DNA of 64,000 nucleotides from an uncultured Celeribacter sp. (GTDB taxonomy: Bacteria; Pseudomonadota; Alphaproteobacteria; Rhodobacterales; Rhodobacteraceae). The notes beneath the pieces were generated by a model. It was not told the origin of the DNA and searched no databases. It worked only from the letters and a program-made list of their open reading frames with translations. Shown one piece after another: positions 30,159 to 50,174 of the stretch. The stretch spans positions 875,245 to 939,244 of the forward strand of contig NZ_CAXXQZ010000001.1 in assembly GCF_963676475.2 (NCBI RefSeq). Direction: 5' to 3'. Within the stretch, counting starts at the first letter, position 1; the number at the start of each line of letters is the position of its first letter. A program made the position numbers and the translations under genes.

Positions 30159-30164
30159 GAAGTC

Positions 30165-32265: not shown

Positions 32266-32271
32266 GGTGAC

Positions 32272-33024: not shown

Positions 33025-33144
33025 TCTAGGGGACTGACCGTGTAAGAGGCGCGATTGAGAGGGAACTTAGGGGGGCATGTGTTAAGACACAATAAGCCCC
33101 CCGTCGTTTTTCAATGCTCTGACGTCTATTTCACGCGTTTGCGT

Positions 33145-36002: not shown

Positions 36003-36110
36003 TTTTTTCGACCGTAAGGGACCAAGTCCCGCGCGGTCGTTACAAAATTGATACGGGGGCAGGGTAATCCCGCCCCCGGAACTGATCCAAGACATTCTAG
36101 GAGAGCCGAC

Positions 36111-36986: not shown

Positions 36987-37015
36987 TCTGACGTTTCACA
37001 CGTCTGAAAAGGTTC

Positions 37016-37046
37016 AAAGGGGGCTGCCTTCGGGTGGCCCTTTTTC
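37016..37046 (+). terminator. Intrinsic terminator of rpsB-tsf
   Basis: GGGCTGCC-TTCG-GGTGGCCC plus T-run. Confidence 0.8.
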
Positions 37047-37282
37047 ATTTGAAAAGGTGTTTCGATGACAGATTTCCGTGCATCGCATGAAATGATTTTT
37101 AAGCAGGGGAGAGATCAAGGGCCGCAAAGTCGACTATAAACCCGCGACCCTCATGAAGTGTCGGTAAGCCGAATAACGTGGCGATCCCGTCACCCCCGTC
37201 CCAAAGGCCAAGCCTCAGAAAGCCGGAACAGCCCCAATCTGTCTTTCTATTCATATTTGTGCAACTACGCACATCCTTACCT

Positions 37283-37298
37283 TTAACTAAAAATTAAC
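37283..37298. promoter_or_regulatory. Perfect CtrA consensus box
   Basis: TTAA-CTAAAAA-TTAAC. Confidence 0.5.
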
Positions 37299-37351
37299 GA
37301 ATACGGGGTTGAGGTGACGCGAAGTCAACTTATCCGCCAGCGGCAGCTCGG

Positions 37352-38089: not shown

Positions 38090-38377
38090 TTTATCCCCCA
38101 ATACCTCGACCCTAAAAAGAACGGTTGCTGGGCGCAAGATGTCCCATAGGTCAAGAGGGCAACAGCAAGTCGCTTCGATCGCACTCCCGCAAACGCGTTT
38201 ATGGTGATCTGGCTCTGCGTGCTCCCCGTGCAATCAAGGATTTATAGCGGAGATATCGCTCAGCGGTGAATCTTTTCGCGTATGTGGAAACAGATCCAGA
38301 AAAAGCGTTTTAAGGGCATGAAACGACGCGCCAGGCGTGCATAATTACGTCACCACAGATTTCAGGGGACTCACCTC

Positions 38378-39322: not shown

Positions 39323-39383
39323 AAATCGCAATAAAAAAGGCCTCCCGGATTGGGAGGCCTTTTCGTGTTTCGAAGCTCTGAGA

Positions 39384-40838
39384 TCAGGTCAACCCGCCGA
39401 AACAGAGGTTCTTGATCTCCAGATAGTCGTCACAACCGTATTTCGAGCCTTCGCGACCCATGCCGGACTGTTTGACCCCGCCAAAGGGTGCCATTTCTGT
39501 CGAAATCGCGCCGGTGTTGATGCCGACCATCCCGGTTTCCAAGGCTTCACCCACACGCCAGGCGCGTTTCAGATCGTTGGTGAAGAAATAGGACGCCAGA
39601 CCGAATTCGGTGGCATTGGCAAACTCCACCGCCTCGTCTTCGGTGTCGAATTTCACCAGCGGCGCGAGAGGGCCAAAGGTTTCCTCGGTGGCGACTTTCA
39701 TCTTTTGCGTCACACCTTTGAGCACGGTCGGTTCAAAGAAGGTCTGCCCGAGGTTCGAGCGATTGCCGCCAACAACCACTTCGGCGCCTTTTTCGACCGC
39801 ATCCTTGATGTGATCCTCGACCTTGGCCACCGCCGCCGCGTTGATCAGCGGGCCGGTGTTGACGCCCTCGGCGAAGCCGTCGCCCAGTTTGAGCGATCCC
39901 AAAGCCGTGGCGAGTTTTTCGGAGAATTCATCATAAATGCCCGCCTGCACGTAAATCCGGTTGGCGCAGACACAGGTCTGGCCGTTATTGCGGAATTTGG
40001 CGAGCATGGCCCCCTCGACCGCCGCCTCCACATCGGCGTCGTCAAAGACGATGAAAGGCGCGTTGCCGCCCAGCTCCATCGACATTTTCTTGACCGTTTC
40101 GGCGCCTTGCGACAGCAGGATTTTGCCCACGCGGGTCGAACCGGTAAAGGTGATCTTGGCCACCTTCGGGTTGGCGCACAACTCTTGCCCCATGCCAGCG
40201 GCATCGAGGCCGGGCAGCACGTTGAACACACCCGCCGGGATGCCCGCACGTTCGGCCAGAACCGCCAGAGCCAGCGCAGACAAGGGCGTGAACTCGGAAG
40301 GCCGCGCCACCATGGAGCAGCCAACGGCAAGGGCAGGGGCCATCTTGCGCGCAATCATCGCATTTGGGAAGTTCCACGGCGTGATCGCACCGACAACGCC
40401 CACGGCTTGCTTGACGATCACCATACGCTTGTCGTTTTGCGGACCGGGGATCATGTCGCCGTAGATGCGCTTGGCCTCTTCCGCGAACCATTCGATGTAA
40501 GACGCGCCATAGAGGATTTCACCACGCGCCTCGGCCCAGGGCTTGCCCATCTCAAGGGTCAGGATGGTCGCCAGATCATCGGCATTTTCCACCATGAGAT
40601 CAAAGAGTTTTCGCAGTGTGTTCGAGCGGGTTTTCACATCCGCGCGCGCCCAGGCCCGTTGCGCCACATAGGCCGCATCAATCGCCATGGCGACGTCTTC
40701 GGCACTCAGATCCGCAACATGGGCGATCACGTCGCCCGTGGCCGGGTTCTCCACCGGGAATGTCTTTTTCGCCTCAACCCAGATGCCATTCACATAGGCG
40801 CGTGTTTCCATCAGGCTGGGGTCTTTCAATGCGCGCAT
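39384..40838 (-). CDS. gabD: NAD(P)-dependent succinate-semialdehyde dehydrogenase
   Basis: PWNFP, MELGGNAPFIVF, KFRNNGQTCVCANR, EETFGP. Confidence 0.92.
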   Translation of the reverse strand: MRALKDPSLMETRAYVNGIWVEAKKTFPVENPATGDVIAHVADLSAEDVAMAIDAAYVAQRAWARADVKTRSNTLRKLFDLMVENADDLATILTLEMGKPWAEARGEILYGASYIEWFAEEAKRIYGDMIPGPQNDKRMVIVKQAVGVVGAITPWNFPNAMIARKMAPALAVGCSMVARPSEFTPLSALALAVLAERAGIPAGVFNVLPGLDAAGMGQELCANPKVAKITFTGSTRVGKILLSQGAETVKKMSMELGGNAPFIVFDDADVEAAVEGAMLAKFRNNGQTCVCANRIYVQAGIYDEFSEKLATALGSLKLGDGFAEGVNTGPLINAAAVAKVEDHIKDAVEKGAEVVVGGNRSNLGQTFFEPTVLKGVTQKMKVATEETFGPLAPLVKFDTEDEAVEFANATEFGLASYFFTNDLKRAWRVGEALETGMVGINTGAISTEMAPFGGVKQSGMGREGSKYGCDDYLEIKNLCFGGLT

Positions 40839-41059
40839 TTTCGTTCTCCCATGCGGCCTTTGCGTCGGCCTTTATTTCGGGTTCGAGATGACCACGGGCG
40901 CAGAGCACGATGTCAGAGGAGCCGCCGCGATGGTCAAGACGCCTCAGTCGAGGCGATGGGCAACGGAGCACATTGGCATAAACACCGCAAGTTAAAACCT
41001 AAATAGCGCCTGCACAGCAGGATGATCGCAAATGCGAAGCGGAGGTGATTGTCCTATTA

Positions 41060-41087
41060 ATTGTACATAATACCAATTATCGGATAT
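41060..41087 (-). other. dif: dif-like XerCD site (attL of the prophage; probable functional chromosomal dif)
   Basis: Minus strand reads ATATCCGATAA-TTGGTA-TTATGTACAAT (11-6-11). The right arm resembles the E. coli XerD arm TTATGTTAAAT, and the site lies at the KOPS polarity switch. Confidence 0.8.
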
Positions 41088-41128
41088 TCCCTAATTACGC
41101 CTTTTCATGATTGCTGCGATTGGCAACC

Positions 41129-41157
41129 AAATAACCAACAATCTTATTAAGGGTCAA
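41129..41157 (-). promoter_or_regulatory. Candidate outward-facing phage promoter at the left end
   Basis: Minus strand TTGACC followed after 17-18 bp by TTATTTG; overlapped by one half of a 10-bp inverted repeat. Confidence 0.3.
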
Positions 41158-41258
41158 GCCTCCTTCAGGTCATTCCTGGCCGGCTCAGAAAACTTAATAA
41201 GAAAAAGCGCCGCCCGATCACCTCGAACGACGCTTTCACATGCCAGCCTAAGCCTCTG

Positions 41259-41468
41259 TTATTGCTCAATTTCAACGGGCGCACGACCCTCCGTGCCGCC
41301 ATAGGCCGAAAGACCGATCCCGGCCACGGCAATCAGAGCCTCGCGCCAGAGATCAATGGTTTCCGCGCCAACTTCGATACCTTGCGAAGCCAGCCACGTT
41401 GCAAGCGCGGTCATGAATGCGCCGATGATCGCGGCCAAGACTTTGCGTGTAAGAAACGCCGTAAGCAT
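41259..41468 (-). CDS. Phage small two-TM protein, holin-like
   Basis: 69 aa, two hydrophobic segments, last gene of the lysis end. Confidence 0.6.
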   Translation of the reverse strand: MLTAFLTRKVLAAIIGAFMTALATWLASQGIEVGAETIDLWREALIAVAGIGLSAYGGTEGRAPVEIEQ

Positions 41469-41483
41469 ATGATTTTCCCCCTT

Positions 41484-41618
41484 TTAAGCGTTTTCGAGTT
41501 TACCAAGGCGCGCCGAAAAATCGTCGTGCGCCTTGGTGAGACCGCCGAGGCGGTAAAAGATCGCGGCCAAGACCGTGAATTGCCCGATGTCGAGGGCGGC
41601 GGCGAGATCGAACGTCAC
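41484..41618 (-). CDS. Phage small single-TM protein (holin/lysis accessory), GTG start
   Basis: VTFDLAAALDIGQFTVLAAIFYRLGGLTKAHDDFSARLGKLENA; GTGA overlap with the upstream stop. Confidence 0.55.
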   Translation of the reverse strand: MTFDLAAALDIGQFTVLAAIFYRLGGLTKAHDDFSARLGKLENA

Positions 41619-41794
41619 TTGATCGCCCCCGCCGATTTGAGCGCCTGATAGGAGATGTATACGCCGCCCGCGACGGTTGCCCATTTGAGCGCTTTAGCGG
41701 TGCTGTCCATTGCCTCGCCGCCCTCTTTCGCGGCCCATCCGACACCAAAAACTCCGAGAATTGCCAAGCCAACGCCAACAACAGGAAATGCCAT
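41615..41794 (-). CDS. Phage small two-TM membrane protein
   Basis: MAFPVVGVGLAILGVFGVGWAAK...WATVAGGVYISYQALK; starts 2 nt after the lysozyme stop. Confidence 0.6.
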   Translation of the reverse strand: MAFPVVGVGLAILGVFGVGWAAKEGGEAMDSTAKALKWATVAGGVYISYQALKSAGAIK

Positions 41795-41795
41795 A

Positions 41796-42536
41796 TCAAA
41801 TCCCCCGAATTGCATTGATGATCGAACCGACGCCGACCAGAGCTTTATTGAGACCGTCACCGGCATAATAGGAGCTTCCCGCGCTCGAACCTGTCACCAC
41901 CGGAAGCGATGCCCACTCCCGCGCCAGATTGTTTGCGAACTGCGTCTCAGTGATCCGTCCAGACTGGTAATCGGACAGCCCGCGCCGCTCCATCAGGGCC
42001 ACGGCAAGACGGTCCTGAAGCTCAGGCGTGAACAGGTCGCTTTTGCGTGCATAACCGGCGTTCACAAGGTCATTGAGCGTCTTGCGAAGGAACTGATACC
42101 GGCCCGCCGCACTGGATGCGGACCCGGCGGCAATGCTTTGTCTCTGCCAGTCCAGCACCTCGCCCACGGTCATTTGCGTGAGCGGCTTCGGTGTCGCGAT
42201 CTTGGAGCCGCCATAGACCTGATTATAGCCTTGCGGAGCCTCTACCCCGCCAATGAGCCCCAGAAGACCTGATAGGCCGCTTGAACTCATTTGCGGCGAA
42301 CCATAGGACGTACTCGGAGCGGTGCTGCCAGAGCTTTGACCGCCTTTCCCAAACAGGCCTGAGAGCGCATCGACAATCCCGAGTGCGGCGGTGATTTTCG
42401 CCGCCGTGTTGTCCGGTTTCGGTTGCTCAACATAGACGACCTTCTGGGAATGCTCAGAGGATGCGCCGCGCTTGGAAAAGGCCCAGAACGCAACGCCCGT
42501 GATCCCCGCAAGAATGACTGCACCAAACTCAGACAT
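41796..42536 (-). CDS. Membrane-anchored lambda-lysozyme-like muramidase/lytic transglycosylase
   Basis: N-terminal TM, Ser/Gly linker, then E-x4-YN...SAAGRYQF...EWASLP lambda-R-type motifs; real start MSEFG at 42536. Confidence 0.8.
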   Translation of the reverse strand: MSEFGAVILAGITGVAFWAFSKRGASSEHSQKVVYVEQPKPDNTAAKITAALGIVDALSGLFGKGGQSSGSTAPSTSYGSPQMSSSGLSGLLGLIGGVEAPQGYNQVYGGSKIATPKPLTQMTVGEVLDWQRQSIAAGSASSAAGRYQFLRKTLNDLVNAGYARKSDLFTPELQDRLAVALMERRGLSDYQSGRITETQFANNLAREWASLPVVTGSSAGSSYYAGDGLNKALVGVGSIINAIRGI

Positions 42537-43155
42537 GGACCACCTCGTCCGCAAATGCCAGCGCGGTAGGCTCTTCCGAATTTGCGTAGACCGCTGCGCC
42601 GCCCAGAATTTCCACAGTTTGGCCCGGTTGAGCCACAACCGTTGCGTATTTCGAGACCCGTGCGCCCGTGGTCGCATAGAAATAGATCGCGCTGGTTTCA
42701 GAGGCGTTTCGGAAAATCGCCTTTTGGCGCATATCATCAATCGGCATGACCTGCTCCACCGTCGAAGAAATAAAGGCCATGTTGTTGATGTATTCGATAC
42801 CGTCAGCCCCAGAGATAACGCCGCCGATGTCGAAGGGACGCATTTGCAGCTTTTCGCGGGTCTCGATTGCTCCCAGAGCTGCAAACCGACCATCACGGAC
42901 GCCGCCACGACCAAAACCAAGCGTCACGATTATCGTTTCGTCAGTCGGGTTGATTATGCGGACGCTATCGAAATCGGCCTCTGAGGTGTATGTGAGGCCC
43001 TTCTGGAACCCGGTTTCCGGGGCCTCCCCGATCTGCACCTTGAAAGGCTTCGTGGCCTCAAGGCAGGACAGAAAATCAGAGCGGCGCGGGACGTTGTGCG
43101 ACTGACCCGGCGCCAGTGTCCAGGTGCTTTCTTGGTAGAACGGTTTTTTGGTCAT
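42529..43155 (-). CDS. Putative penton/spike protein (PM2 P1-like position, beta-rich)
   Basis: All-beta pattern; QVMPIDDMRQKAIFRN and QPGQTVEI resemble recalled PM2 P1 domain II segments; syntenic slot. Confidence 0.55.
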   Translation of the reverse strand: MTKKPFYQESTWTLAPGQSHNVPRRSDFLSCLEATKPFKVQIGEAPETGFQKGLTYTSEADFDSVRIINPTDETIIVTLGFGRGGVRDGRFAALGAIETREKLQMRPFDIGGVISGADGIEYINNMAFISSTVEQVMPIDDMRQKAIFRNASETSAIYFYATTGARVSKYATVVAQPGQTVEILGGAAVYANSEEPTALAFADEVVHV

Positions 43156-43943
43156 TTGAGTACCTGTGCAATGAGAATGAGAGCTATGGCCGGGACGCCG
43201 ATCCGAATGAGCTGCGTGGATAGCTGGGTGCTGTCCTCTTGGCTTTTTTCAAGGGTGGATGCGAAGGCCCCTGAGAGCTGGTCAAGAGACTGCCCTGCGA
43301 ATTTATAGGCGTCCTCTCGCGCCCCCTCTGCAAAGGACAGAGCGTCACCTGTTGCCCCCACCACCTCGTCCAGCGATGTTTGGGCAAAATTGAATGCGTC
43401 ATTGCCAAATCCGACCACGTCAGAAAGCGCACGCTCCCCAAAGTTCAGGCTTTCGGAAAGGGCCTCTTGCGAAAGGTCGATCCCCTGCCCGGCCAAATCC
43501 ACACTGTCCGCAAATCGGTCATTCGATAGGCGCACCGCATCAGAGGCGAAATCGAAGGCCTCGCGCTGCGCATCATTGACCAAGTCATAAGCGCCACTTT
43601 GAGCGTCACCGGCGAAATCGAAGGCTTCGCGCTGCGATCCGTCCGCAAAATCCAGCGCGTCTGAAACTGCACCGCCTGCCACATCAAGACCTTGCTGCCC
43701 GAGATCATAACCGCCATAGGCAACTTCGTCGGCCAGCGAAAAGGCACTGTCTGCGGCCTCATTGATCGCGTCAGCAAAAGCCTCGCCCAGAGATACGGCC
43801 TCACCGCTCGTTTGGTTAATCACCACATCACCACCGGCGCGCGTAACGACAGAGCCAGCATCCGCCGCGACCCGTTCGTCATAGGTGTTGTAGTTGGTTT
43901 GCGTTGTGTTCGTGCTGCGAGAGCTACCGCCGAAAAGACCCAT
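43152..43943 (-). CDS. Membrane/DNA-delivery protein with 11/22-residue repeats (PM2 P10-like position)
   Basis: N-terminal MGLFGG and Ser/Thr run, DAQREAFDFA repeats, C-terminal TM. Confidence 0.6.
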   Translation of the reverse strand: MGLFGGSSRSTNTTQTNYNTYDERVAADAGSVVTRAGGDVVINQTSGEAVSLGEAFADAINEAADSAFSLADEVAYGGYDLGQQGLDVAGGAVSDALDFADGSQREAFDFAGDAQSGAYDLVNDAQREAFDFASDAVRLSNDRFADSVDLAGQGIDLSQEALSESLNFGERALSDVVGFGNDAFNFAQTSLDEVVGATGDALSFAEGAREDAYKFAGQSLDQLSGAFASTLEKSQEDSTQLSTQLIRIGVPAIALILIAQVLK

Positions 43944-43970
43944 ATTAACGCCCGTTTTTGGTTATGAAGT

Positions 43971-43992
43971 GACGCCCGCATTTGCGGGCGTC
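43971..43992. repeat. Perfect intergenic inverted repeat in the structural operon
   Basis: GACGCCCGCA-tt-TGCGGGCGTC. Confidence 0.85.
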
Positions 43993-43996
43993 CCGA

Positions 43997-44185
43997 TCAC
44001 TTTTTGACGATGAACCAGATTGCGACCGCCGCGACGATCACAGGCGCAAGCGTCTGGAGCCACCCCACCGAACCGGACGACCCTTTAAAGGCAAAATCGC
44101 CGGTCGCAGCGGCCCCGCCGCCAGAGGTTGCCATGCCGTCCGCCGAGGCGTGGCCACCGGACAGGCTTAGGTTTGGGAGTGTCAT
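43997..44185 (-). CDS. Small Gly/Ser-rich membrane protein (PM2 P8-like)
   Basis: 62 aa after AGGAG RBS; Gly-rich, ends LAPVIVAAVAIWFIVKK. Confidence 0.65.
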   Translation of the reverse strand: MTLPNLSLSGGHASADGMATSGGGAAATGDFAFKGSSGSVGWLQTLAPVIVAAVAIWFIVKK

Positions 44186-44250
44186 TCCGCTATCTCCTGT
44201 CGTTTGAGCTGCGGTCGTGGTCGGTGGCCTTCGCGGCGAGGTTGGCGCAA

Positions 44251-44673
44251 TCACTTCTTGGCAATGAAGTAGACAGCGCCAACGGCAAGAGCGCCCATCA
44301 GGATCAGAGACGGAGAAATCCCCCCGCTCTCGCCCTGCGTCTGATAGGCAACCGGCGTCACCTGCCCGTCCCCCGTGCTGCCCATGTACCCGAGAACCGC
44401 CGTGGCAACGTTCGTCAGGCCCGACAATGTCGAGGACGTACCGTCGACCGACGGGGCGGGAACAACGGTGCTGCCCGATCCGCCGATGTTGTCCGGCCCC
44501 ATGTTCTGGATCGGCGTTCCCATCGACAGACTTGCCATGAAGCTGTCCATATCTTGCGTCCACCCCCAAACAGGGTCCGTTTTCGGGATGTTCGATCCAT
44601 AGGAGAGCTGCGCGCCGGTGCTGTACGGATTACCGACAGTCGGCGCGCCCCCTCCTCCGAAAGAAAGTGCCAT
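44251..44673 (-). CDS. Virion membrane protein (PM2 P3-like)
   Basis: Directly follows the MCP; low complexity, C-terminal TM plus KK. Confidence 0.65.
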   Translation of the reverse strand: MALSFGGGGAPTVGNPYSTGAQLSYGSNIPKTDPVWGWTQDMDSFMASLSMGTPIQNMGPDNIGGSGSTVVPAPSVDGTSSTLSGLTNVATAVLGYMGSTGDGQVTPVAYQTQGESGGISPSLILMGALAVGAVYFIAKK

Positions 44674-44688
44674 ATTGAGACCTCCGTT

Positions 44689-45504
44689 TTAGGTTGACGT
44701 CGCCGGGCTGCGCATCGAGACCGAATAGATTTTGAAGTTCGTACCGGGCGCGGTGAAATCGAGTTTCACGCGGAAGTCGCGGAGGGTCATGGGCAGAACC
44801 TCGCCAAGGCGATTTTCGCTCATGAAGTCGATATGCGTGAAGCCGATCTGCGGAGCGCGGCCAGCAACGGACAGGTGCGCATTGCGGAGAACTTCGTCGC
44901 TTTCATGCACCTTCACGTTGTTGGTCAGCACCTCGACCTTGTCGATGTCATCCGATGTCACATGCAGGCCGAGAAGGTTGAAAGCGCCTTTGGGCAGGTC
45001 TGCAATTTCCTTGGTCCCCGCAAGGCCCATCTGGTCGGAGAAGCGCTGAATGCGCAAATGACCCGCGAAAGCGCGCGGCTCGGATTGCACCGCATAAACG
45101 GACAGCTCATTGACGGTAATGCCGTTTTTCAGGTCCATTTCAAGCGTCATGGTCGCGACGCCGGAGCCGGTGCCGTAAGCCGTGTTGTCCTCGCCCGCCA
45201 AGGTCCGCGCCCACGGCTGGGACAGGAATAACGGAAGAACGCCAGCGGACATTTCTTGTCCGTAATAAAGATTAAGAGAAACGAGGTCAGCCGCGTCAAT
45301 CTCGATCTTGGTTTCACCGTTCACCATCAGGCGAATCTCGCCGATATAGGCGCCCCAGTTGGCAACCTCAACATCACGCGGCGTCACGTTCACATTCATG
45401 CGGACATTGAGCCGGTGATAGGTCGGACCGATGGGCAGGTTTACGATTGCGGTTTGACCCGCGCCGATGCCCTGCGGGGTCGGCATTTTTTCGATACGGC
45501 GCAT
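44689..45504 (-). CDS. Double-jelly-roll major capsid protein (PM2 P2-like)
   Basis: 271 aa; LPIGPTY, KEIADLP, IDFMSE and DFRVKLD match recalled PM2 P2 motifs (LPIGQTY, TEIADLP, IDFMLE, DLRLKID). Confidence 0.88.
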   Translation of the reverse strand: MRRIEKMPTPQGIGAGQTAIVNLPIGPTYHRLNVRMNVNVTPRDVEVANWGAYIGEIRLMVNGETKIEIDAADLVSLNLYYGQEMSAGVLPLFLSQPWARTLAGEDNTAYGTGSGVATMTLEMDLKNGITVNELSVYAVQSEPRAFAGHLRIQRFSDQMGLAGTKEIADLPKGAFNLLGLHVTSDDIDKVEVLTNNVKVHESDEVLRNAHLSVAGRAPQIGFTHIDFMSENRLGEVLPMTLRDFRVKLDFTAPGTNFKIYSVSMRSPATST

Positions 45505-45529
45505 TTTTTGCTCCTGTGTTGGTGTCGGA

Positions 45530-45652
45530 TCAGCCGAAGCCGCGTTTGGCGTCGGAAACGATGCCGATGTCTTCGAATTGGTTCATCAGAAAGCCAGCGG
45601 CGACAACGCCAGCCATGACCAGCGCCACAAGTTTGAGGTCGGTTTTTTTCAT
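45530..45652 (-). CDS. Small single-TM protein (PM2 P7-like position)
   Basis: MKKTDLKLVALVMAGVVAAGFLMNQFEDIGIVSDAKRGFG, immediately before the MCP. Confidence 0.65.
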   Translation of the reverse strand: MKKTDLKLVALVMAGVVAAGFLMNQFEDIGIVSDAKRGFG

Positions 45653-45768
45653 GCGTAAAAGCCCGTTTGTTGAGGTTGCGGGGCGGTCTCCGCGCGGCGC
45701 GTAATGTACCAAACGGCCAGCCCGGAAAGGACTGACGCGGCCACGGTCAAAGCGAATGTTTTGGACAA
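45649..45768 (-). CDS. Small single-TM protein, TTG start (absent from the ORF track)
   Basis: MSKTFALTVAASVLSGLAVWYITRRAETAPQPQQTGFYA; AGGGG RBS; ATGA overlap with the next gene. Confidence 0.6.
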   Translation of the reverse strand: MSKTFALTVAASVLSGLAVWYITRRAETAPQPQQTGFYA

Positions 45769-45775
45769 GAGAAAA

Positions 45776-45851
45776 CCCCTGTTTTCGGTTGAGAACAGGG
45801 GAAGCATGACGGGGTTTCTGCGGGCGCTCGACTTAACGTAGCGAACGCCCG
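45776..45851. promoter_or_regulatory. Two stem-loops between the ATPase and structural genes
   Basis: CCCCTGTTTTC/GAGAACAGGGG (covers the RBS) and CGGGCGCTCG/CGAACGCCCG. Confidence 0.5.
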
Positions 45852-45884
45852 TAGCGTAGCGTTATGAATTGCGCTTTTTGTCGA

Positions 45885-46601
45885 TTAGGCGCGTTTTTTC
45901 CGTTTCGGCGCGGAATTGTCGTTTGCCGCCGGTGGCAAGTTGGTGTTTGCCGGTTTCGGTTTTGCAGCGCTCCGGCCAAAGGTGATCTTGCCGCGTTCGA
46001 TCTTGCCCGCCTTCTCGTGCAGGTAGTGCAGATTTTCCGCCGGAAGATCGGAGACCCGGACGCCCAATTCCGCCGCCGCCGCCTGTTTGTCGCGCGGCCC
46101 CTTTTGGCGAAACACCACAGTTTCGGTGCAGTTGCCACGGAACCGCGTGTCAACCTCTGCGAGCCGCTGAGAGACGCCCACGACCTCAATCCCGAAGTGG
46201 CGACCACGGGAACAGATTTCCGCAAAGCCGGGGCATTTCTGCGCGCCCCCGGCGACCGGGAAAGCCATGTTCATTTCTTCGACCACAAGCGTGAGCTGGT
46301 CGCCCTGCCCCGTGTCCTTAAAAGGCTGTTGCGCCATCATCAGGAGCTTGCAGAGCGCGGAGAGGCTTTTCGTCTCCGCACCCGGTCGCGGGACGTAAGA
46401 AACCCGGAACTTGTTCCAGCTCTTGCGCATCCCGATGCGCACCCCGTCGAGATCGCGCACAGATTGCCCGCCGTACTCGTCCAGCGGGTCGAAGATCACG
46501 ACGCGGCGTTTCGGCTTAACGTAGCGCTTTGTAAAGGCGGATTTGCCGGACCCGGACGCCCCCCAGACGCCCAAGCGGCCCGCGTTGCTCGAAGCGCTCA
46601 T
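45885..46601 (-). CDS. FtsK-HerA/A32-like genome packaging ATPase (PM2 P9-like)
   Basis: GASGSGKS Walker A, LVVEE Walker B, SRGRHFG arginine finger, VSQR sensor. Confidence 0.9.
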   Translation of the reverse strand: MSASSNAGRLGVWGASGSGKSAFTKRYVKPKRRVVIFDPLDEYGGQSVRDLDGVRIGMRKSWNKFRVSYVPRPGAETKSLSALCKLLMMAQQPFKDTGQGDQLTLVVEEMNMAFPVAGGAQKCPGFAEICSRGRHFGIEVVGVSQRLAEVDTRFRGNCTETVVFRQKGPRDKQAAAAELGVRVSDLPAENLHYLHEKAGKIERGKITFGRSAAKPKPANTNLPPAANDNSAPKRKKRA

Positions 46602-47164
46602 GCCGCTTCCTCGTCCGCATTCATGGGCGGCGCATCGACGTTTGCGGCCTCCGGCGTTCGGCTGCTCTTGAAGCTGCCCTCTGGTGCCTCGACCGTCGCG
46701 GCCTTCGCCTTCCGCCGCTCGATCAGAATGGCCCGCACAGCGCCGGTTTGCATGATCAGGAAAGGCGTCATTCGCATGATCGCCGCAAAGGTGTCATTGC
46801 TCGCCAACAGGATTGACGGGAAGTACATTTCACAGAGATTATAAGCGGCGTCTGCCGCATCCGCGAAAGGCTCTTCCTTCTCGTCGGTGATCGCAAGCGG
46901 TTTGAAGTCAGGAAGCATCATCCCCGGCATGTTGAACGACAGGCGGAAGACAGCGGCGAAGGCTTCGCGGCTCATGCGCTCCGGCTCAATCTGACCGGCC
47001 AGCGGCTCCCCGTCCTCCCCAATCTGGATAGGATCATCGTCCGCGAAGGTCTCCCCGTCGATGTCGGGCGCGCGGAAGCTGTCGAGGTGCGCGCCCGGAT
47101 CGGAGCTGGTCACGGCCTCCGGTGCGTTCATATCGTCAAAATTCAGATCAGTATCCGTAGTCAT
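46598..47164 (-). CDS. Phage protein with acidic N-terminus, coupled to the ATPase
   Basis: 188 aa, D/E-rich first 60 residues; ATGA overlap with the ATPase. Confidence 0.65.
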   Translation of the reverse strand: MTTDTDLNFDDMNAPEAVTSSDPGAHLDSFRAPDIDGETFADDDPIQIGEDGEPLAGQIEPERMSREAFAAVFRLSFNMPGMMLPDFKPLAITDEKEEPFADAADAAYNLCEMYFPSILLASNDTFAAIMRMTPFLIMQTGAVRAILIERRKAKAATVEAPEGSFKSSRTPEAANVDAPPMNADEEAA

Positions 47165-47540
47165 TGAGCGTGTCCCCCGCTTTACGTTTCGTTACGGGTG
47201 CGCGGTCGTCGTTCGCGGTCTCCGGCTTATTAACGGGCGTATCGCTACGCGGTGCGGCGCTTGGCGCGGCGTTGGTGTTCGCGGCCACCATGGGCGCGGG
47301 TGCGATGCCTTCGCGGCGGTGATAATCGGCCCGTATCGCCTCCGATTTCACCGCGCCCCAGCGGACGCCAAAACCGCAGCTCTGGCCCTGCGCGTCGAAG
47401 TTTCCGCAGTTGTAATATGCTTTGCCGGAGACGTTGATTTTGACCTGAACACGCCCCCCACAACAGGCGCACTTGTCGATCCGAACAACGGTCCCTTGTG
47501 GCAAAGGAAACGGACGCGGGCGGCGTTGTTTGTCGCTCAT
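47148..47540 (-). CDS. Zinc-ribbon protein, putative late transcription activator
   Basis: CxxC...YYNC-x9-CGF; start MSDKQ at 47540. Confidence 0.65.
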   Translation of the reverse strand: MSDKQRRPRPFPLPQGTVVRIDKCACCGGRVQVKINVSGKAYYNCGNFDAQGQSCGFGVRWGAVKSEAIRADYHRREGIAPAPMVAANTNAAPSAAPRSDTPVNKPETANDDRAPVTKRKAGDTLNDYGY

Positions 47541-47776
47541 GATGCACCCCCAACGCGTAGCGAAGCGCGGTTTGCTTCCCACGCCTCCAAAACCTGTTCT
47601 TGGTGCGCCTCAACCTCTTCGGGCGTCATGATGCGGACGCCGAAAAGGTCTTGGCCGGGATAGGCGGCGCGGAACCGGGCGCGGGCGTCCTTCGGGCTGT
47701 TGGCCGCGATCATGTGGGACCGTGCGCCCAGCTCACCGACAAGGGCCGAGACGCGATAGCGGGTTTTCGTGGTCAT
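47537..47776 (-). CDS. Phage hypothetical protein
   Basis: 79 aa, overlapping start/stop with both neighbours. Confidence 0.6.
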   Translation of the reverse strand: MTTKTRYRVSALVGELGARSHMIAANSPKDARARFRAAYPGQDLFGVRIMTPEEVEAHQEQVLEAWEANRASLRVGGAS

Positions 47777-47952
47777 TGCGCCACCTCCCCGGCCATGGCG
47801 TCGATCCGCGCGGCCATTTTCTCCATCACGTCCAGCGTGTCCGTCACGAGGTCGATCACCTCGCCCGGTTTTGTGGCGAGCATCATGGGGGATTTCTTCG
47901 CCAGATCGGCGGCGCGGTCGCGCAGCATCCGCGTTTCGTCTTTGAGTTGCAT
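47773..47952 (-). CDS. Phage hypothetical helical protein
   Basis: MQLKDETRMLRDRAADL...; RBS GAAGGG; translationally coupled. Confidence 0.6.
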   Translation of the reverse strand: MQLKDETRMLRDRAADLAKKSPMMLATKPGEVIDLVTDTLDVMEKMAARIDAMAGEVAQ

Positions 47953-48419
47953 TTCGGGTGACCCTTCGTGGTTAACGTGCAGGGAAGGTAACCAGATACC
48001 ACCACACGCCAACCCAAAAAAAACAAAAAACGCCTCAGGGGCCGTTTACAGGCGCTCTAAGGCGTTTTGGGTGCCGTGGTCACAAAAAGGCCCTATCGCC
48101 TCCCCTGCCCCCGCTGTGCGTCCAGTTTGCGGCCATTCTGTTCTTCCCCCGTACCTCCCCCGTTCCATCAGCCGGAACAAACGGCGGCAATTCTGGGGCG
48201 AAATTTTCAACCCTTCCCCAATTCATGGCGGGCCGAAGGCCCTCAATATCCCGGCCTCTCTCCCGCATGGCGCTCACCCGTACCGGCCCTCTCAACCCGC
48301 ACCCAACGCTGCGCCATGCCTTCCGCCGTCCCTCTCCACCCCGCACTTTATCAACTTGTTCCCCGACTAGGGGAACGCCTCATATCGTTGGTTCCTTTGG
48401 GAACCATGGAGGGGGGGGT

Positions 48420-48484
48420 AAATATTCACCCCCTTTTGGGGGAAATTTTCACCCCCTTTATCACTAAATTTTCACCCCCTTTAT
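48420..48484. repeat. Three iteron-like direct repeats with exact 23-bp phasing
   Basis: AAA(T/A)TTTCACCCCCTTT at 48420, 48443 and 48466 (the last two identical over 19 bp); degenerate copy at 48201. Confidence 0.85.
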
Positions 48485-48500
48485 TAATCCTGACAGAAAG

Positions 48501-48509
48501 TTATCCACA
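48501..48509 (+). promoter_or_regulatory. DnaA box next to the iterons
   Basis: Perfect TTATCCACA. Confidence 0.75.
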
Positions 48510-48515
48510 GGCACG

Positions 48516-48538
48516 AAAAAGCCCGCCGGGTGGCGGGC
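48516..48538 (-). terminator. Intrinsic terminator of the rep operon
   Basis: GCCCGCC-gggt-GGCGGGC followed by T5 on the minus strand. Confidence 0.75.
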
Positions 48539-48566
48539 CTATCTCTGTCGGCTGGTCTCGATGTCC

Positions 48567-49058
48567 CTAAAACGTTTCTGGGTTTTCAGGGTCGCCCATG
48601 ATCTCTAGGGCCTTAGACGGCCCGTATTTGCCGCGCAGGAAGCGCCATGTTGCTTCCCTGTCCCGGTTGGTCTCCATGACCTCCATTTGATCGTCTGACG
48701 GTGATTTTTCCTTGCCGGGGACGGTCAAAAGCCATGTGGTCGGCACCTTGCGCCCGCCCTGCCAGTTTTTCATGGGCTTTAGGCTTCCTTCATTGCGCAG
48801 AAAGCGGACGGACGTTCTAACCGTGTCATAGCAACACCCGGCGTCAGCCATGAGTTGTTCTTTTGTGATCGTGACGACCGGCCTATGAAAATCTGCCTTA
48901 TTCCACATGGCCTCTAAAACAAGTCTCTGCGCCAACTTGGCTTTGGTGTTCAAAAAGGCGGCTTTTCTGGTCCGGCGGGTAGCGGCGCAAGCTGATCTGT
49001 ATTCGGCCTCATTTGCGAATCCTGCGCGCTGCCATTTTGGGGCTCTTTTTGTCGTCAT
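48567..49058 (-). CDS. Winged-helix protein, putative replication initiator
   Basis: ITKEQLMADAGCCYDTVRTSVRFLRNEGSL HTH plus wing (GGRKVPTTW); directly adjacent to the iterons and DnaA box. Confidence 0.6.
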   Translation of the reverse strand: MTTKRAPKWQRAGFANEAEYRSACAATRRTRKAAFLNTKAKLAQRLVLEAMWNKADFHRPVVTITKEQLMADAGCCYDTVRTSVRFLRNEGSLKPMKNWQGGRKVPTTWLLTVPGKEKSPSDDQMEVMETNRDREATWRFLRGKYGPSKALEIMGDPENPETF

Positions 49059-49282
49059 CTCTTCGCCCCAGCACTGCGAAGCATTGCCGCTACATCATCG
49101 ACCATAAACATCAGCGGAAGATTGCCGATTGTCCCGGCCTCTTTCATGGCTTTGATCTGCAAGGAAATGGCCGCTTCGGTGCGCTTTAGTGCCCTAGCAA
49201 TGGTCGCATTCTTAATTCCACGCGCATATCCGATGCGGATGCAGTCTTTTTCAAATTCAGTTATTAACCTGCCCCGTGCCAA
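49055..49282 (-). CDS. Small HTH regulator (TTG start)
   Basis: KNATIARALKRTEAAISLQIKAM HTH; GAAAGG RBS; ATGA coupling to rep. Confidence 0.7.
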   Translation of the reverse strand: MARGRLITEFEKDCIRIGYARGIKNATIARALKRTEAAISLQIKAMKEAGTIGNLPLMFMVDDVAAMLRSAGAKR

Positions 49283-49445
49283 TTCTTGACTGCCTTTCTG
49301 TATTGGCGTTAATATGGGAACAGGCCTCTAACGAGGTGATGCATCCTTGGTCGGGTGTGTCGGCTGGCCTCCAGTTTATCGGCTCCTGCCGTTTGGCAAC
49401 TGGACTGCCAGCCCATAACCCCCAGCCCTACATATCGTATCTACG

Positions 49446-49473
49446 TTTTACCGTAGTACCAATTATAAGATAA
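49446..49473 (-). other. Degenerate dif-like site (attR)
   Basis: Minus strand reads TTATCTTATAA-TTGGTA-CTACGGTAAAA: same 6-bp core as attL, related XerC arm, degenerate XerD arm. Confidence 0.75.
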
Positions 49474-49529
49474 TAGACACAATGCTGAGCTCAATACCAA
49501 ACCCATGCAACCCATGCAAAACCCAACGC

Positions 49530-50174
49530 TCAGTCACACAAAGACGTCACCCAGAGGATCGTCGCATCCTCCGGGCTGATCGAAATCACGTTGTGCCCCA
49601 TCGAGGCGTCGTAATAGGCACTGTCGCCACGGCGCATCTCGACGGGTTCGTAGAACTCGGTGATCAACTTGATGACGCCCGTGAGCACATAGAGGAATTC
49701 TTCGCCGTCATGGCGCACCCAGCCATCGAATTCCTCGAAGGCGCGCGCCCGAATGGTGGCGCGATACGGCAGCATGGATTTCTTGGTCAAAGCGCCCGCC
49801 AGCATCTCATGTTCATAGGTCGCCGTCGGATGCGCTGCGCCCTCGCCTGATTTCGTTACCGCCATGCGACCGGAAATTTGCGCCTTTTGCGGCGGCGTGA
49901 AAAGCTGCGGCACGGAAATCTCCAAACCGACAGCAAGCTTTTTCAGCGCATCATAGGTTGGCGACATCTGGCCGTTCTCGATCTTCGACAGCGTCGAGCG
50001 CGCCAGACCGGCCTGCGTTGCCGCCTGCTCCAAGGTCCAGCCGCGTGCTTTGCGCAGTTCACGCACACGCAATCCCAAATCCAGAGGCCGCGCCTCATCA
50101 GGGGCAGCTTCGACACCTTCGCGGGCCAGTCGGATGAGGCTCGGGGTGTGATCTTGAGTGTGATCGTCTTGCAT
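49530..50174 (-). CDS. XRE-family regulator with cupin domain
   Basis: WTLEQAA...STLSKIENGQMSP HTH; HDGEEFLYVL cupin. Confidence 0.9.
   Translation of the reverse strand: MQDDHTQDHTPSLIRLAREGVEAAPDEARPLDLGLRVRELRKARGWTLEQAATQAGLARSTLSKIENGQMSPTYDALKKLAVGLEISVPQLFTPPQKAQISGRMAVTKSGEGAAHPTATYEHEMLAGALTKKSMLPYRATIRARAFEEFDGWVRHDGEEFLYVLTGVIKLITEFYEPVEMRRGDSAYYDASMGHNVISISPEDATILWVTSLCD

Follow-up and report, generated by a model that had tools for sequence, protein, structure and literature searches.

A probable Vinavirales prophage without an integrase in the chromosomal dif site of an uncultured Celeribacter

How might a phage genome that encodes no integrase come to lie in a bacterial chromosome? 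The question is raised by positions 41060–49473 of the 64,000-nucleotide stretch of a contig from an uncultured marine Celeribacter (Rhodobacterales; NZ_CAXXQZ010000001.1) analysed here (the window), in which about 18 ORFs, all on the minus strand, are flanked by two 28-nt dif-like sites with the common spacer TTGGTA. We consider it probable (about 0.82) that this region is a structurally complete prophage of the order Vinavirales, which has no integrase of its own and resides in the chromosomal dif through an Xer-type spacer crossover. Vinavirales, of which PM2 is the type, are icosahedral phages that lack a tail, enclose an internal membrane, and have a circular dsDNA genome.

Overall organization of the element

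The outer edges of the two dif-like sites (41060–41087 and 49446–49473) are exactly the ends of the element, 41060 and 49473, where the original prediction had placed them, and the site-to-site length is 8,386 bp. All features below are on the minus strand. In this orientation, the genes for an HTH protein and a winged-helix (wHTH) protein are followed by a noncoding iteron region, two small ORFs, and the genes for a Zn-ribbon protein, an acidic protein, and an FtsK/HerA-type ATPase; then come two small transmembrane (TM) proteins, the major capsid protein (MCP), membrane proteins, a spike-position protein, a peptidoglycan hydrolase, and small TM proteins. Many neighbouring ORFs overlap by 4–17 nt, and one pair by 46 nt. 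Searches of all element ORFs against Pfam, PHROGs, and NCBIfam returned no match to a tyrosine or serine recombinase, a transposase, a portal, or a tail protein, and all tyrosine-recombinase-like matches of the whole genome lie outside the element. The ORF map and the family searches thus bear out both the co-oriented gene order and the lack of these gene classes that had been proposed.

The element genes are collinear with those of circular metagenomic relatives. For all ORFs but two, circular or integrated relatives carry a homologue in collinear position; the other two are matched in L036, a related prophage that occupies the same dif of a host with ~83% identity.

Capsid, packaging, and membrane protein genes

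The MCP (271 aa, 44689..45504) is of the PM2 P2-type double jelly roll (DJR). Pfam P2_N (1.2e-20) and P2_C (1.8e-18) each matched above cut-off, and the sequence matched 2vvf and 9t9v in the PDB (PM2 P2 and NO16-type DJR) with E ~1e-10. Foldseek aligned its AlphaFold (AF2) model (pLDDT 91.7) with 2vvf_A (E 1e-22, TM 0.89, rmsd 2.1 Å) and then with the DJR MCPs of STIV, PRD1, and PBCV; modelling as a DJR had been named beforehand as a test that could refute the prediction, and the fold was recovered.

The packaging ATPase (45885..46601), of the FtsK/HerA (A32/P9) type, matched phrog_2666 (E 3e-25) and PM2 P9 (E 5e-9), with sub-threshold matches to DUF87/HerA and Zot. The phrog_2666 label “terminase large subunit” denotes the P9-type packaging ATPase. 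A third protein with sequence homology to PM2 is the repeat-rich protein of 263 aa (43152..43943), which has a C-terminal TM segment; it is a homologue of PM2 gp j (P10; tblastn E 4e-9, 30% over 177 aa) and matched phrog_20836 (E 1e-9).

Other genes of this module were compared with PM2 and Jorvik by position. The acidic protein (188 aa, 46598..47164), which is kept in all relatives at 30–39% and in L036 at 85%, occupies the position of PM2 gp h and Jorvik Gp6 and is a putative assembly factor. The Zn-ribbon protein (144 aa, 47148..47582), also conserved in all relatives, gave a sub-threshold match to Zn_ribbon_recom (E 4.9e-4), the one near-match to a recombinase within the element, and lacks a catalytic domain; its position and the PM2 annotation suggest a zinc-ribbon transcription factor like PM2 P14. 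Two small TM proteins are encoded between the ATPase and the MCP: one of 52 aa (45649..45807; 68% identity to L029 and 73% to L036), and one (45530..45712) whose gene immediately precedes that of the MCP, a P7-like position. The latter probably starts at ATG 45652, giving 40 aa; alignment with the relatives begins at residue 22, and their genes encode 40–42 aa. The membrane protein of 140 aa (44251..44673), in a P3-like position, has homologues directly 3′ of the MCP gene in L028–L030, L033, and L034, and the membrane protein of ~87 aa (43997..44260), with an uncertain start and in a P8-like position, is 50% identical to an 89-aa gene product of the circular contig L029. The 208-aa protein (42529..43155) is a possible spike from its position, that of PM2 P1 and Jorvik Gp14. 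It has a conserved N-terminal half and a variable C-terminal part, that is, L030 aligns at 50% over residues 1–101 only and other relatives over residues 1–160; a sequence search of the PDB gave no match to it.

Lysis cassette

The peptidoglycan hydrolase (247 aa, 41796..42539) contains an N-terminal TM segment as well as a linker rich in Gly and Ser. It matched the endolysin family phrog_90 (E 2e-26) and, weakly, Pfam Transglycosylas; relatives bear Pfam SLT at this position. The adjacent small TM protein is listed as an 83-aa ORF (41615..41866), and the internal ATG at 41794 is probably its start, giving 59 aa; relatives align from residues 14–47 on, and their genes encode 59–60 aa. A small conserved protein of 66 aa (41484..41684) has same-position homologues in L028–L031, L035, and L036. 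The last gene encodes a TM protein of 69 aa (41259..41468), which had no family match of its own in the Pfam, PHROG, and NCBIfam searches of the element ORFs. It shares 60% identity with the final gene product of a Thioclava prophage and 87% with that of L036, and it occupies the slot of Phage_holin_10 genes in relatives, which makes it a holin candidate. A terminator-like hairpin with a 15-bp stem and a T-run (41203..41237) closes the late/lysis operon.

Putative replication and regulatory module

The HTH protein (75 aa, 49055..49282) adjoins attP and is the positional counterpart of Jorvik Gp1. Its HTH_38 match is sub-threshold, and it is 79% identical to its counterpart in phage YY, 96% in L036, and 68% in Thioclava. 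By analogy with the regulatory role of Jorvik Gp1 (PMC10589892), it is a candidate lysis-lysogeny regulator. Pfam profile searches recognised neither a repressor nor an Xer-activating factor (XafT/DUF3653) among the element ORFs.

The winged-helix protein (163 aa, 48567..49058) is a putative replication initiator. It shares 65% identity with gp19, the replicase of phage YY, and 95% with its L036 homologue, and it aligned with the N-domain of the Jorvik Gp2 replicase in hhalign (probability 84%, E 7.6e-6). Its AF2 model (pLDDT 82) is a wHTH; however, the fold search matched generic wHTH proteins and regulators only, which counts against the initiator reading. The adjoining 555-bp noncoding origin/regulatory region (48013..48566) contains three 23-nt iterons (AAAGGGGGTG, 48415–48483) and one degenerate copy (48196–48213), a perfect DnaA box (48501–48509; the sole one in the window and one of 17 in the genome), and hairpins with T-runs at ~48515–48540 and 48020–48065. 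The iterons recur in L034 and L036; the DnaA box also follows the Rep gene of L031 and of L036; and the iterons, DnaA box, and wHTH protein are conserved as a set in relatives. Two small ORFs (47537–47776 and 47773–48012, the latter probably starting at 47952) have homologues in L036 only (91% and 70%).

Junction sites and the chromosomal dif

The junction on the lysis-gene side (41060..41087) reads ATATCCGATAA-TTGGTA-TTATGTACAAT (XerC arm, spacer, XerD arm). This site is unique in the genome at ≤6 mismatches. G006 has a single dif-like site, from which it differs at one position, and it agrees with the consensus drawn from 17 congener dif sites. It lies ~5 kb past the GC-skew plateau; joining the two contigs gives ori-to-dif arms of 1.93 and 1.98 Mb. 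The closest relatives, G006 and G001, have one orthologous site each, located beside the gabD block, and no prophage. Judged from its sequence and location (uniqueness, genus consensus, skew terminus), this site is the functional dif of the chromosome, in agreement with the predicted insertion in dif.

The hybrid junction on the HTH side (49446..49473) reads TTATCTTATAA-TTGGTA-CTACGGTAAAA and consists of a host-type XerC arm, the identical spacer, and a foreign, non-dif phage arm, as a spacer crossover with attP would leave. Its XerC arm differs from the dif arms of G343 and G009 at one position. The core of this host-side arm, CTTATAA, occurs in 0 of 19 tabulated dif-like sites, and the arm might therefore bind XerC poorly. 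The Thioclava prophages L031 and L059 have the same polarity, in which the HTH end carries the hybrid site and the lysis end a consensus dif; L034 and L036 have the same hybrid architecture on the HTH side; and in the circular relatives L030, L033, L060, and L058 the XerC arm and spacer lie in the holin-to-HTH gap. From the two junctions, attP would be reconstructed as ATATCCGATAA-TTGGTA-CTACGGTAAAA and the ancestral dif as TTATCTTATAA-TTGGTA-TTATGTACAAT. The predicted attP junction (ATATCCGATAATTGGTA followed by CTACGGTAAAA) was not found in the viral and metagenomic contig collections. The genome encodes XerC and XerD (reciprocal best hits), and because the phage encodes no recombinase, we infer that these host proteins are the catalysts and that integration depends on Xer.

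One expectation failed: relatives had been predicted to show an empty gabD-XRE/cupin intergenic site, and in them these genes are 14–17 kb apart and in opposite orientation. No such site exists because this genome carries the block ending in gabD and dif in inverted orientation. An inversion and a ~2-kb deletion have altered the surrounding region, which makes exact reconstruction of the ancestral empty site impossible.

Proposed life cycle

In the proposed cycle, host XerC and XerD would catalyse a crossover between attP and the host dif within the common 6-bp spacer. This would leave the lysis-gene side with a fully consensus dif, keeping chromosome dimer resolution working, and the HTH side with the hybrid site. 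The episome would replicate from the iteron and DnaA-box origin by means of the 163-aa winged-helix protein and host DnaA. The late genes (ATPase, small membrane proteins, DJR capsid, membrane proteins, gp j homologue, spike-position protein, hydrolase, and holin-like protein) make up one co-directional unit closing at the strong terminator. The element may be able to excise and form particles and is possibly inducible.

Distribution and alternative explanations

The element was found neither in 24 congeners at the DNA level nor, by its MCP, in 300 genomes of the family, and the block is thus not a conserved core region, the other outcome named beforehand as a refutation. Integrated copies at dif are frequent in the lineage and span several genera (L028, L031, L034, L035, L036, and L059), circular forms are represented by L029 and L060, and L033 is a dimer contig, with two head-to-tail copies of the virus integrated in L034. 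Rather than a recently acquired and inducible phage, the element could be an old resident that is vertically inherited and possibly immobile or kept for host benefit, which we regard as rather unlikely. It would have lain at dif in the common ancestor with the L036 host, later been lost by G001 and G006, and then been inverted here as a whole unit. The L036 prophage lies beside the same host block A (83.4% nucleotide identity) in the un-inverted arrangement, and synonymous divergence from L036 in the shared phage genes (0.29–0.76) overlaps that of the host flank genes (0.51–0.83); together, these observations allow long residence rather than recent infection. The CTTATAA core is common to both copies, G006 and G001 have ATATCCGATAA as the XerC arm of dif, the same sequence as the phage-side arm of the element, as expected after prophage loss keeping that junction, and the exact MCP is known from one contig only. 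By contrast, all element genes, virion genes included, are intact and under purifying selection (dN/dS of 0.06–0.37 against L036), and the two copies differ in their structural module (57% for the MCP vs 85% for the ATPase), which points to recombination with other phages and hence to an active phage population. Moreover, dS of HTH and Rep (~0.3) is below that of the host genes, family members occur as circles and integrated forms in the metagenomes of one study, and since closer relatives (90% identity) have no prophage, vertical inheritance needs at least one loss.

It is less probable still that the element is mainly an episomal phage-plasmid, with a dif-like site for multimer resolution, as in plasmid cer and psi, and dif integration as an occasional by-product, not dedicated lysogeny. 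An iteron, DnaA-box, and Rep module is typical of theta plasmids, genome-sized circular contigs and the dimer contig exist, and attP retains a good XerC arm and spacer; however, plasmid resolution sites normally require accessory sequences and both arms, whereas the XerD arm of the element is degenerate, and the frequent dif-integrated copies across genera and the integrated state of Jorvik lysogens (PMC10589892) favour lysogeny. Multimer resolution and dif lysogeny are mutually compatible roles. Integration by an unrecognised phage recombinase, with the likeness to dif as target mimicry only, appears very improbable: the weak Zn_ribbon_recom match would make the 144-aa protein an example, but this protein lacks the catalytic domain of a resolvase or integrase and sits at the position of PM2 P14, the junction architecture is of the kind that Xer spacer exchange leaves, and published relatives are likewise thought to use XerCD (PMC10589892, PMC12715192). 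The evidence as a whole supports the original prediction of a tailless DJR (Vinavirales) prophage without an integrase that lies in the genuine dif of the chromosome, has an iteron-type replication module, and shows a PM2-like gene order.

Comparison with known systems

The gene order of the element parallels the annotations of both PM2 and Jorvik, and sequence homology to PM2 is seen in the MCP (P2), the ATPase (P9), and the 263-aa protein (gp j). [quoted passage not shown] The annotated Jorvik attP, TCCGATAATCAGTATT, has the same arm as the site of the element. A close kinship with Jorvik is not supported: the ATPases are 22.5% identical, the MCPs are barely alignable, and the HTH and Rep module alone is shared, with phage YY. 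A CtrA box has been proposed in Jorvik, whereas none (TTAA-N7-TTAA) occurs within the element.

The combination of XerCD hijacking with a plasmid-type replicon, put forward as uncharacterised, is already published for Jorvik (PMC10589892) and for the catalogued Vibrio “dif-type” DJR prophages (PMC12715192; work of 2023–2025). The claim to novelty in phage kind and integration mode therefore fails, and the supplementary list of the Jorvik paper includes members of the lineage of this element (PMC10589892). Four of the five named Vinavirales families appear to be separated from this lineage at the family level.

Gene content and completeness of the element

The element (41060–49473) comprises about 18 ORFs, all on the minus strand from 49282 down to 41259, as revealed by ORF listing and family scans. 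The compact co-oriented block of the original prediction was found as described, and its end coordinates are the exact outer edges of two 28-nt dif-like sites. The minus-strand gene order begins with a 75-aa HTH protein and a 163-aa winged-helix protein, followed by 555 bp of non-coding sequence and two small ORFs. The middle part encodes a 144-aa Zn-ribbon protein, a 188-aa acidic protein, a 238-aa ATPase, two small TM proteins, and the 271-aa major capsid protein (MCP). The distal part encodes two membrane proteins, a 263-aa repeat protein, a 208-aa protein at the position of the spike, and a 247-aa hydrolase, and the block ends with three small, mostly hydrophobic proteins and a terminator (15-bp stem) 3′ of the last gene. 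This overall order parallels those of the annotated PM2 genome, as had been predicted, and the annotated Jorvik genome.

The 238-aa protein, encoded just upstream of the MCP gene, is a packaging ATPase of the FtsK/HerA type (phrog_2666, E 3e-25) and matches PM2 P9 (E 5e-9) at a collinear position. The genes after the MCP gene fit PM2 and Jorvik in position and size, with significant sequence similarity for two of them only: the 263-aa protein, which matches PM2 gp j at a collinear position, and the 247-aa peptidoglycan hydrolase (phrog_90, E 2e-26). Assignment of the hydrolase to the lambda type (GH104), which came from its motif, had no backing in a PDB sequence search, and we name the protein no further than endolysin/transglycosylase-like. 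A PDB sequence search with the 208-aa protein returned no match; the spike and holin assignments and the role of the HTH protein are putative and follow position and precedent. The ICTV description of Vinavirales cites nine signature genes.

Family scans of the element ORFs gave no match to a recombinase, transposase, portal, or tail protein, which bears out the prediction on this point, and all tyrosine-recombinase matches in the genome lie outside the element. No ORF of the element matched a DUF3653 (XafT-type) protein, and no divergent repressor was recognised; all genes are co-directional. An Rfam search of the element at E ≤ 0.1 returned nothing, and a sigma-70 promoter scan gave hits that were not above those in shuffled sequences, with none on the coding strand. 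The CtrA box (TTAA-N7-TTAA) is absent from the element, the sole one in the window being at 37283. Collinear homologues exist in relatives for all ORFs but two, both of which have homologues in the related prophage L036, and dN/dS values against that prophage range from 0.06 to 0.37; the copy therefore looks complete and functional at the sequence level.

The major capsid protein is a double jelly roll

The MCP matched the Pfam families P2_N and P2_C with scores of 73.9 and 67 bits, respectively (cut-off, 25), and a sequence search recovered PM2 P2 (2vvf/2w0c) and a newer double-jelly-roll (DJR) capsid entry, 9t9v. An AlphaFold (AF2) model built from 28 homologues had a pLDDT of 91.7 and a pTM of 0.89. 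Structural comparison by Foldseek superimposed this model on PM2 P2 (2vvf_A) with a TM score of 0.89 and an RMSD of 2.1 Å, and the next-best matches were the DJR capsid proteins of STIV, PRD1, and PBCV-1. The prediction had been staked on the MCP modelling as a double jelly roll, which it does. By Pfam, AF2, and Foldseek, the protein is a vertical DJR MCP of the P2 type, as in Vinavirales.

The element occupies the chromosomal dif site

The left site (41060–41087), on the lysis-gene side, reads ATATCCGATAA-TTGGTA-TTATGTACAAT on the minus strand, and the right site (49446–49473), on the HTH side, reads TTATCTTATAA-TTGGTA-CTACGGTAAAA. The left site has no second match in the genome when up to 6 mismatches are allowed, and it agrees with the consensus nnnTC[C/T][G/T]ATAA-T[T/C][G/A]GTA-TTATGTAnnnn, which summarises 17 sites from congeners. 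In the two nearest relatives, G006 and G001, whose flanks are about 90% identical to those of the element, there is a single orthologous, prophage-free dif site per genome, with its XerD arm toward the gabD block, as in the window. In addition, the left site lies at the GC-skew terminus, where the skew plateau ends about 5 kb away. On the strength of its uniqueness, consensus fit, orthologous sites, and skew-terminus position, we identify the left site from sequence as the chromosome's own dif, in agreement with the predicted insertion there.

The position of dif was evaluated on the joined contigs C1 and C2 of this genome. The first 19 nt of the two contigs are exact reverse complements, so that the contigs abut head-to-head, and the GC skew of C2 is monotonic. 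The joined chromosome measures 3,909,995 bp, with ori-to-dif arms of 1.93 and 1.98 Mb and balanced replichores of 49.4% and 50.6%. An arrangement of two replicons with dif1 and dif2, as in Vibrio, was rejected on account of the monotonic skew of C2 and the 19-nt abutment; for the same reasons C1 and C2 probably constitute a single 3.91 Mb chromosome, rather than a chromosome accompanied by a chromid. A further sequence that is as good as the dif consensus, ATGACTGATAA-TTCGTC-TTATGTATAGT, is located outside the window at C2:790956-790983, about 222 kb from the GC-skew minimum (origin side). Its spacer type (TTCGTC/TTCGTT) also occurs on other contigs of the congeners G003, G019, and G343, and the site may act in the resolution of a plasmid or island or may delimit another IMEX.

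The two flanking sites are in direct orientation and have a common spacer, and one of them regenerates a canonical dif. The chromosome-side half of the right site, TTATCTTATAA-TTGGTA, differs by one base from the dif XerC arms of congeners (G343, TTATCCTATAA; G009, TTATCTGATAA), and the phage-side half is not dif-like. A crossover between the host dif and the phage attP within the 6-bp spacer would produce exactly the hybrid right site that is seen. The reconstructed attP is ATATCCGATAA-TTGGTA-CTACGGTAAAA, in which 5 of the 11 positions of the XerD arm agree with the host arm by our count, and the reconstructed ancestral attB is TTATCTTATAA-TTGGTA-TTATGTACAAT. Upon excision, the circle would join ...GGGAATATCCGATAATTGGTA to CTACGGTAAAACGTAGATAC... 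(attP), and the restored chromosome junction would be TTATCTTATAATTGGTATTATGTACAAT (attB). An exact search of viral and metagenome contigs for the predicted attP gave no match, a result that is uninformative because this exact phage has been seen only once.

The host encodes XerC at C1:2048760-2049644 (313 bits to the XerC model) and XerD at C1:826823-827719 (316 bits to the XerD model); both are reciprocal best hits with scores slightly under the curated cut-offs. The element thus has the hallmarks of an IMEX, namely no self-encoded recombinase, dif-like flanks, the terminus dif as target, and a host with XerC and XerD, and by analogy its integration would be Xer dependent. Elsewhere on C1, outside the window, two tyrosine-recombinase-like matches (C1:752723-753271 and C1:1627881-1628429) have identical scores and one in-frame TAG each; they probably represent a repeated mobile element, present twice, whose integrase gene is interrupted.

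A genus-wide dif table (loci L039–L053) contains the spacer classes TTGGTA, TCAGTA, TCGGTA, TTGATA, and TCTGTC and the XerC arm cores CCGATAA, CCTATAA, and CTGATAA. The attP spacers of the phages related to this element fall in the same classes. The sequences suggest that host range may be set by spacer matching.

The replication module

The region 3′ of the winged-helix gene contains, in order, a hairpin with a T-run, a perfect DnaA box, and three directly repeated 23-nt iterons (48415–48483) with a degenerate fourth copy, and a second hairpin with a T-run precedes the next ORFs. The DnaA box, TTATCCACA at 48501–48509, has no second copy in the 64-kb window, where 0.08 would be expected by chance; the whole genome contains 17 such boxes. 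A DnaA box is also located 3′ of the corresponding gene in the Thioclava element (L031) and in L036; repeats of the AAAGGGGGTG type recur in L034 and L036, and L028 has four copies of a variant repeat, AAAGGGTGCC. These iterons, the DnaA box, and their recurrence in relatives make an origin of this architecture well supported at the level of sequence.

The 163-aa winged-helix protein (putative Rep) has 95% identity to its L036 counterpart and 65% to gp19 of phage YY. Rep had no Pfam or NCBIfam match; in hhalign, its family profile aligned with the replicase Gp2 of Jorvik at the N-terminal domain (probability 84%, E 7.6e-6), and the Jorvik authors compare Gp2 to P1 RepL (PMC10589892). The Rep model is a winged helix (pLDDT 82), and a fold search with it returned only generic wHTH regulators (MarR-type), with the plasmid RepA N-domains 4pql and 5kbj among many weak matches (TM 0.37–0.48). 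Such a search does not discriminate an initiator from a regulator. The plasmid-type replicon of the original prediction is in place with respect to the iterons and the DnaA box, and we infer, with somewhat better than even confidence, that Rep acts as its initiator.

Local rearrangement and age of the insertion

Comparison of the local REARRANGEMENTS with G001 and G006 revealed that a 12.8-kb block ending in gabD (window 28063–40860) has been inverted together with dif and, in this genome, the prophage. The inversion junctions are at 27161–28063 and 49474–49543, and the latter end directly adjoins the right junction of the prophage. The empty gabD-XRE/cupin site that had been expected in relatives does not exist; the block ending in gabD is inverted here relative to G001 and G006. 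The gabT gene and the divergent XRE/cupin regulator, which lie between gabD and dif in both relatives, are deleted here (about 2 kb), leaving a 48-nt remnant of the gabT 3′ end at 40950–40997 between gabD and dif. Three kilobases of transferase-like genes on the far side of dif in G006 are also absent. At the other junction is a 240-aa ORF (27196–27918, minus strand) that is absent from G001 and G006. An origin of the inversion in Xer recombination, with dif and a pseudo-dif of opposite orientation as partners, was considered and set aside, no reciprocal site being seen at the junction 27161–28063.

The related prophage L036 resides at the same dif in un-inverted surroundings. Its host flank is 83.4% identical to the host block adjoining dif in the window, and its host-side arm has the core CTTATAA, as in the right site of the window. 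The two prophages may descend from one that resided vertically for a long time and was later lost in G001 and G006, which would explain why the dif XerC arm of these relatives equals the phage-side arm in the window; alternatively, the two hosts may have been infected independently by one phage lineage. Synonymous divergence between the window and L036 is 0.29–0.76 for the shared phage genes and 0.51–0.83 for the host flank genes, and these overlapping ranges favour neither explanation.

Relatives in Rhodobacterales

Homologues of the MCP form 96 clusters with 37–76% identity (97 are listed including the protein of the window itself). The element belongs to a clade of unnamed Rhodobacterales prophages and circles (L028–L036 and L057–L060; Thioclava, Cognatishimia, and Tritonibacter entries are titled "major capsid protein P2"), within which pairwise identities are 49–76% for the MCP and 54–85% for the ATPase. 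Its members have in common a collinear gene set and the polarity of the att sites, with an iteron-type origin where Rep is shared. No recombinase domain is listed at the relatives' loci.

The norm for Vinavirales is a circular dsDNA genome of about 8–10 kb, and the window copy itself is integrated. Among the relatives, L029 (8,315 bp) and L060 are circular, with terminal overlaps of 55 and 26 nt, respectively, and L033 holds two genome copies joined head to tail, with a period of 9,912 bp. An integrated copy of the L033 virus, with an identical MCP, was found in a 275-kb contig from the same study (L034); this pair suggests that both episomal and integrated forms exist in nature. The L034 prophage adjoins the genes for rhodanese, aroQ, tsf, and rpsB in ENA metagenome scaffolds.

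In the circles, about 300–375 bp separate the holin gene from the HTH gene that comes after it. In most of them this gap contains an XerC-type arm and a spacer, as in L030 (TTCGCGCATAA-TCAGTA-CTATGATCAAT), L060 (AAGGCGCATAA-TCAGTA), and L033 (AATACTCATAA-TCAGTA); the gap of L029 has no obvious dif-like site. Two genome-sized Logan contigs, L057 and L058, end exactly after the XerC-type arm and the 6-bp spacer, where branching of the assembly graph is expected if attP and an integrated junction co-occur in a sample. In the integrated copies of Thioclava (L031) and L059, as in the window, the hybrid site is the one at the HTH end and the consensus dif the one on the lysis side, and L034 and L036 have the same polarity at the HTH-side junction. 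In these integrated relatives a host arm (CCTATAA or CTGATAA) is opposite the phage arm (CCGATAA). The clade spacers (TTGGTA, TCAGTA, TCGGTA, and TCTGTA) vary in parallel with those of host dif sites. The Thioclava copy is located between phosphoglucomutase and a quinone-oxidoreductase/cbb cluster, the same neighbourhood as that of the Jorvik attB in R. capsulatus (PMC10589892).

The modules of the element are mosaic. The nearest counterparts of the HTH protein and Rep are in Thioclava and L036, and those of the structural genes are in L029. Nucleotide identity to L036 is about 82% over the modules for regulation, packaging, and lysis, but the MCP of L036 is only 57% identical.

Relation to described elements

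The original prediction regarded an integrase-less DJR phage at dif with a plasmid-type replicon as an uncharacterised combination. PM2-like prophages had been described by Krupovic and Bamford (2007, PMC1950889), who raised the XerC/D precedent; 258 Vibrio DJR prophages of int-type and dif-type have been curated, with a dif-like attP in PM2 itself (PMC12715192, 2025); and the families Mestraviridae, Asemoviridae, and Parnassusviridae were created by the ICTV in 2025. The combination is thus already in the literature, and the element is confirmed as a Vinavirales prophage residing at dif as an IMEX in Rhodobacterales, a further example of a kind already published; most of the original interpretation otherwise holds. 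When IMG/VR was scanned for patterns of the MCP family, a search limited by its method, no relative was found.

The accepted picture is unchanged by this element, and its value is incremental. Tailless membrane-containing phages are under-detected, and the element adds a copy with sharply defined limits from a nearly complete Rhodobacterales genome, for which attL and attR are exact and attP and attB reconstructed. It therefore provides a ready substrate for studies of Xer-dependent lysogeny in Alphaproteobacteria, in which only Jorvik has been studied. Further yields are the genus-wide dif table, the retention of the XerC half, which is opposite to the half kept by the Vibrio DJR elements, and the exchange of replication modules among Vinavirales families. 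Worth following are the precise att reconstruction, the contrast between XerC-arm and XerD-arm attP sites, and the possible unnamed family-level clade.

Comparison with named Vinavirales and IMEX systems

Jorvik (Mestraviridae, Anticleavirus; OP588643; PMC10589892) resembles the element in its Rhodobacterales host, its 8.8-kb circular DJR genome without an integrase, its dif-like attP with a common TCCGATAA arm and spacer, for which use of host XerCD has been proposed (PMC10589892), its small wHTH replicase (hhalign 84% to the Rep family), its HTH gene beside attP, and the order P9-P7-P2-P3-P8-P10-P1-transglycosylase-holin. By contrast, the ATPases are 22.5% identical, and the Jorvik MCP has 328 aa rather than 271 and is barely alignable (a 63-aa local match). 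Jorvik also has three operons on two strands, whereas all genes of the element are co-directional; in addition, it encodes an M15 peptidase and an acetyltransferase and has a proposed CtrA site, for which no counterparts were found in the element. Marinomonas phage YY (Mestraviridae, Polymedevirus; MH105080; L037) is similar in its HTH protein (79% aa identity) and Rep (65%). Its structural and packaging module is Jorvik-like, with an ATPase of 25% identity and an MCP that was undetected with the window MCP as query, so that only the replication and regulation module is in common. HTH and Rep sequences that are shared between phages with virion modules unrelated at the sequence level point to exchange of the replication module across Vinavirales families.

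Within Mestraviridae, the MCP and ATPase similarities to Jorvik are no higher than those to other families. The MCP is 25% identical to that of PM2 (Corticoviridae), which is in the between-family range, and no ORF of the element resembles gene XII or a DUF3653 protein; PM2 has both a 634-aa rolling-circle initiator, P12, and a DUF3653 protein. The MCP identities are 32% to Autolykiviridae (1.249.A) and 27% to Asemoviridae (NO16), without clustering with either family, and no PolB was found in the element; Autolykiviridae have a linear genome and a protein-primed PolB. The MCPs of the named families are 29–36% identical to one another. By this crude measure, the clade appears to be at family-level distance from four of the five named families, namely Mestraviridae, Corticoviridae, Autolykiviridae, and Asemoviridae; the fifth is Parnassusviridae (Marinomonas phage MfV, MW618650).

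The Vibrio dif-type DJR elements and NO16 (Asemoviridae) and PM2 (Corticoviridae) are likewise integrase-less DJR prophages that reside at dif as IMEXs (PMC12715192, PMC9966536). In the Vibrio elements a canonical dif is also regenerated at one junction, and attP is a one-armed 17-bp dif-like motif (PMC12715192). The arm differs: the Vibrio DJR elements and PM2 keep ATTTAACATAA plus the spacer (PMC12715192), whereas the clade of the element and Jorvik keep the XerC arm together with the spacer and have a degenerate XerD arm, a layout like that of TLCphi. The Vibrio elements end in p15 (XafT-like) and p16 (repressor), whereas the element ends in HTH and holin-like genes, and the MCPs have the same fold with 25–27% identity. 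We take ATTTAACATAA to be the XerD arm, by comparison with V. cholerae dif1.

If the XerC arm is the one kept, each integration would swap the host XerC arm for the phage arm. Phages could then drive both the CCGATAA/CCTATAA/CTGATAA variation among the dif sites of the genus and rearrangements around the terminus. Taken jointly, an Xer route different from that of the Vibrio dif-type DJR elements, a role as driver of dif polymorphism, and the status of a sixth, unnamed family are an unlikely reading, to which we give about one chance in five.

A parallel to this attP outside Vinavirales is in the TLCphi-type IMEX of Vibrio cholerae, which is reportedly a filamentous satellite phage whose XafT (DUF3653) is said to activate XerD. 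XafT is encoded by TLCphi itself, unlike in the element, among the ORFs of which none was detected. As in the element, the TLCphi attP combines a good XerC arm and a degenerate XerD arm with the spacer of the host dif. On the unlikely reading given above, integration of the element might by this likeness need an unrecognised phage factor, the HTH protein encoded beside attP being a candidate.
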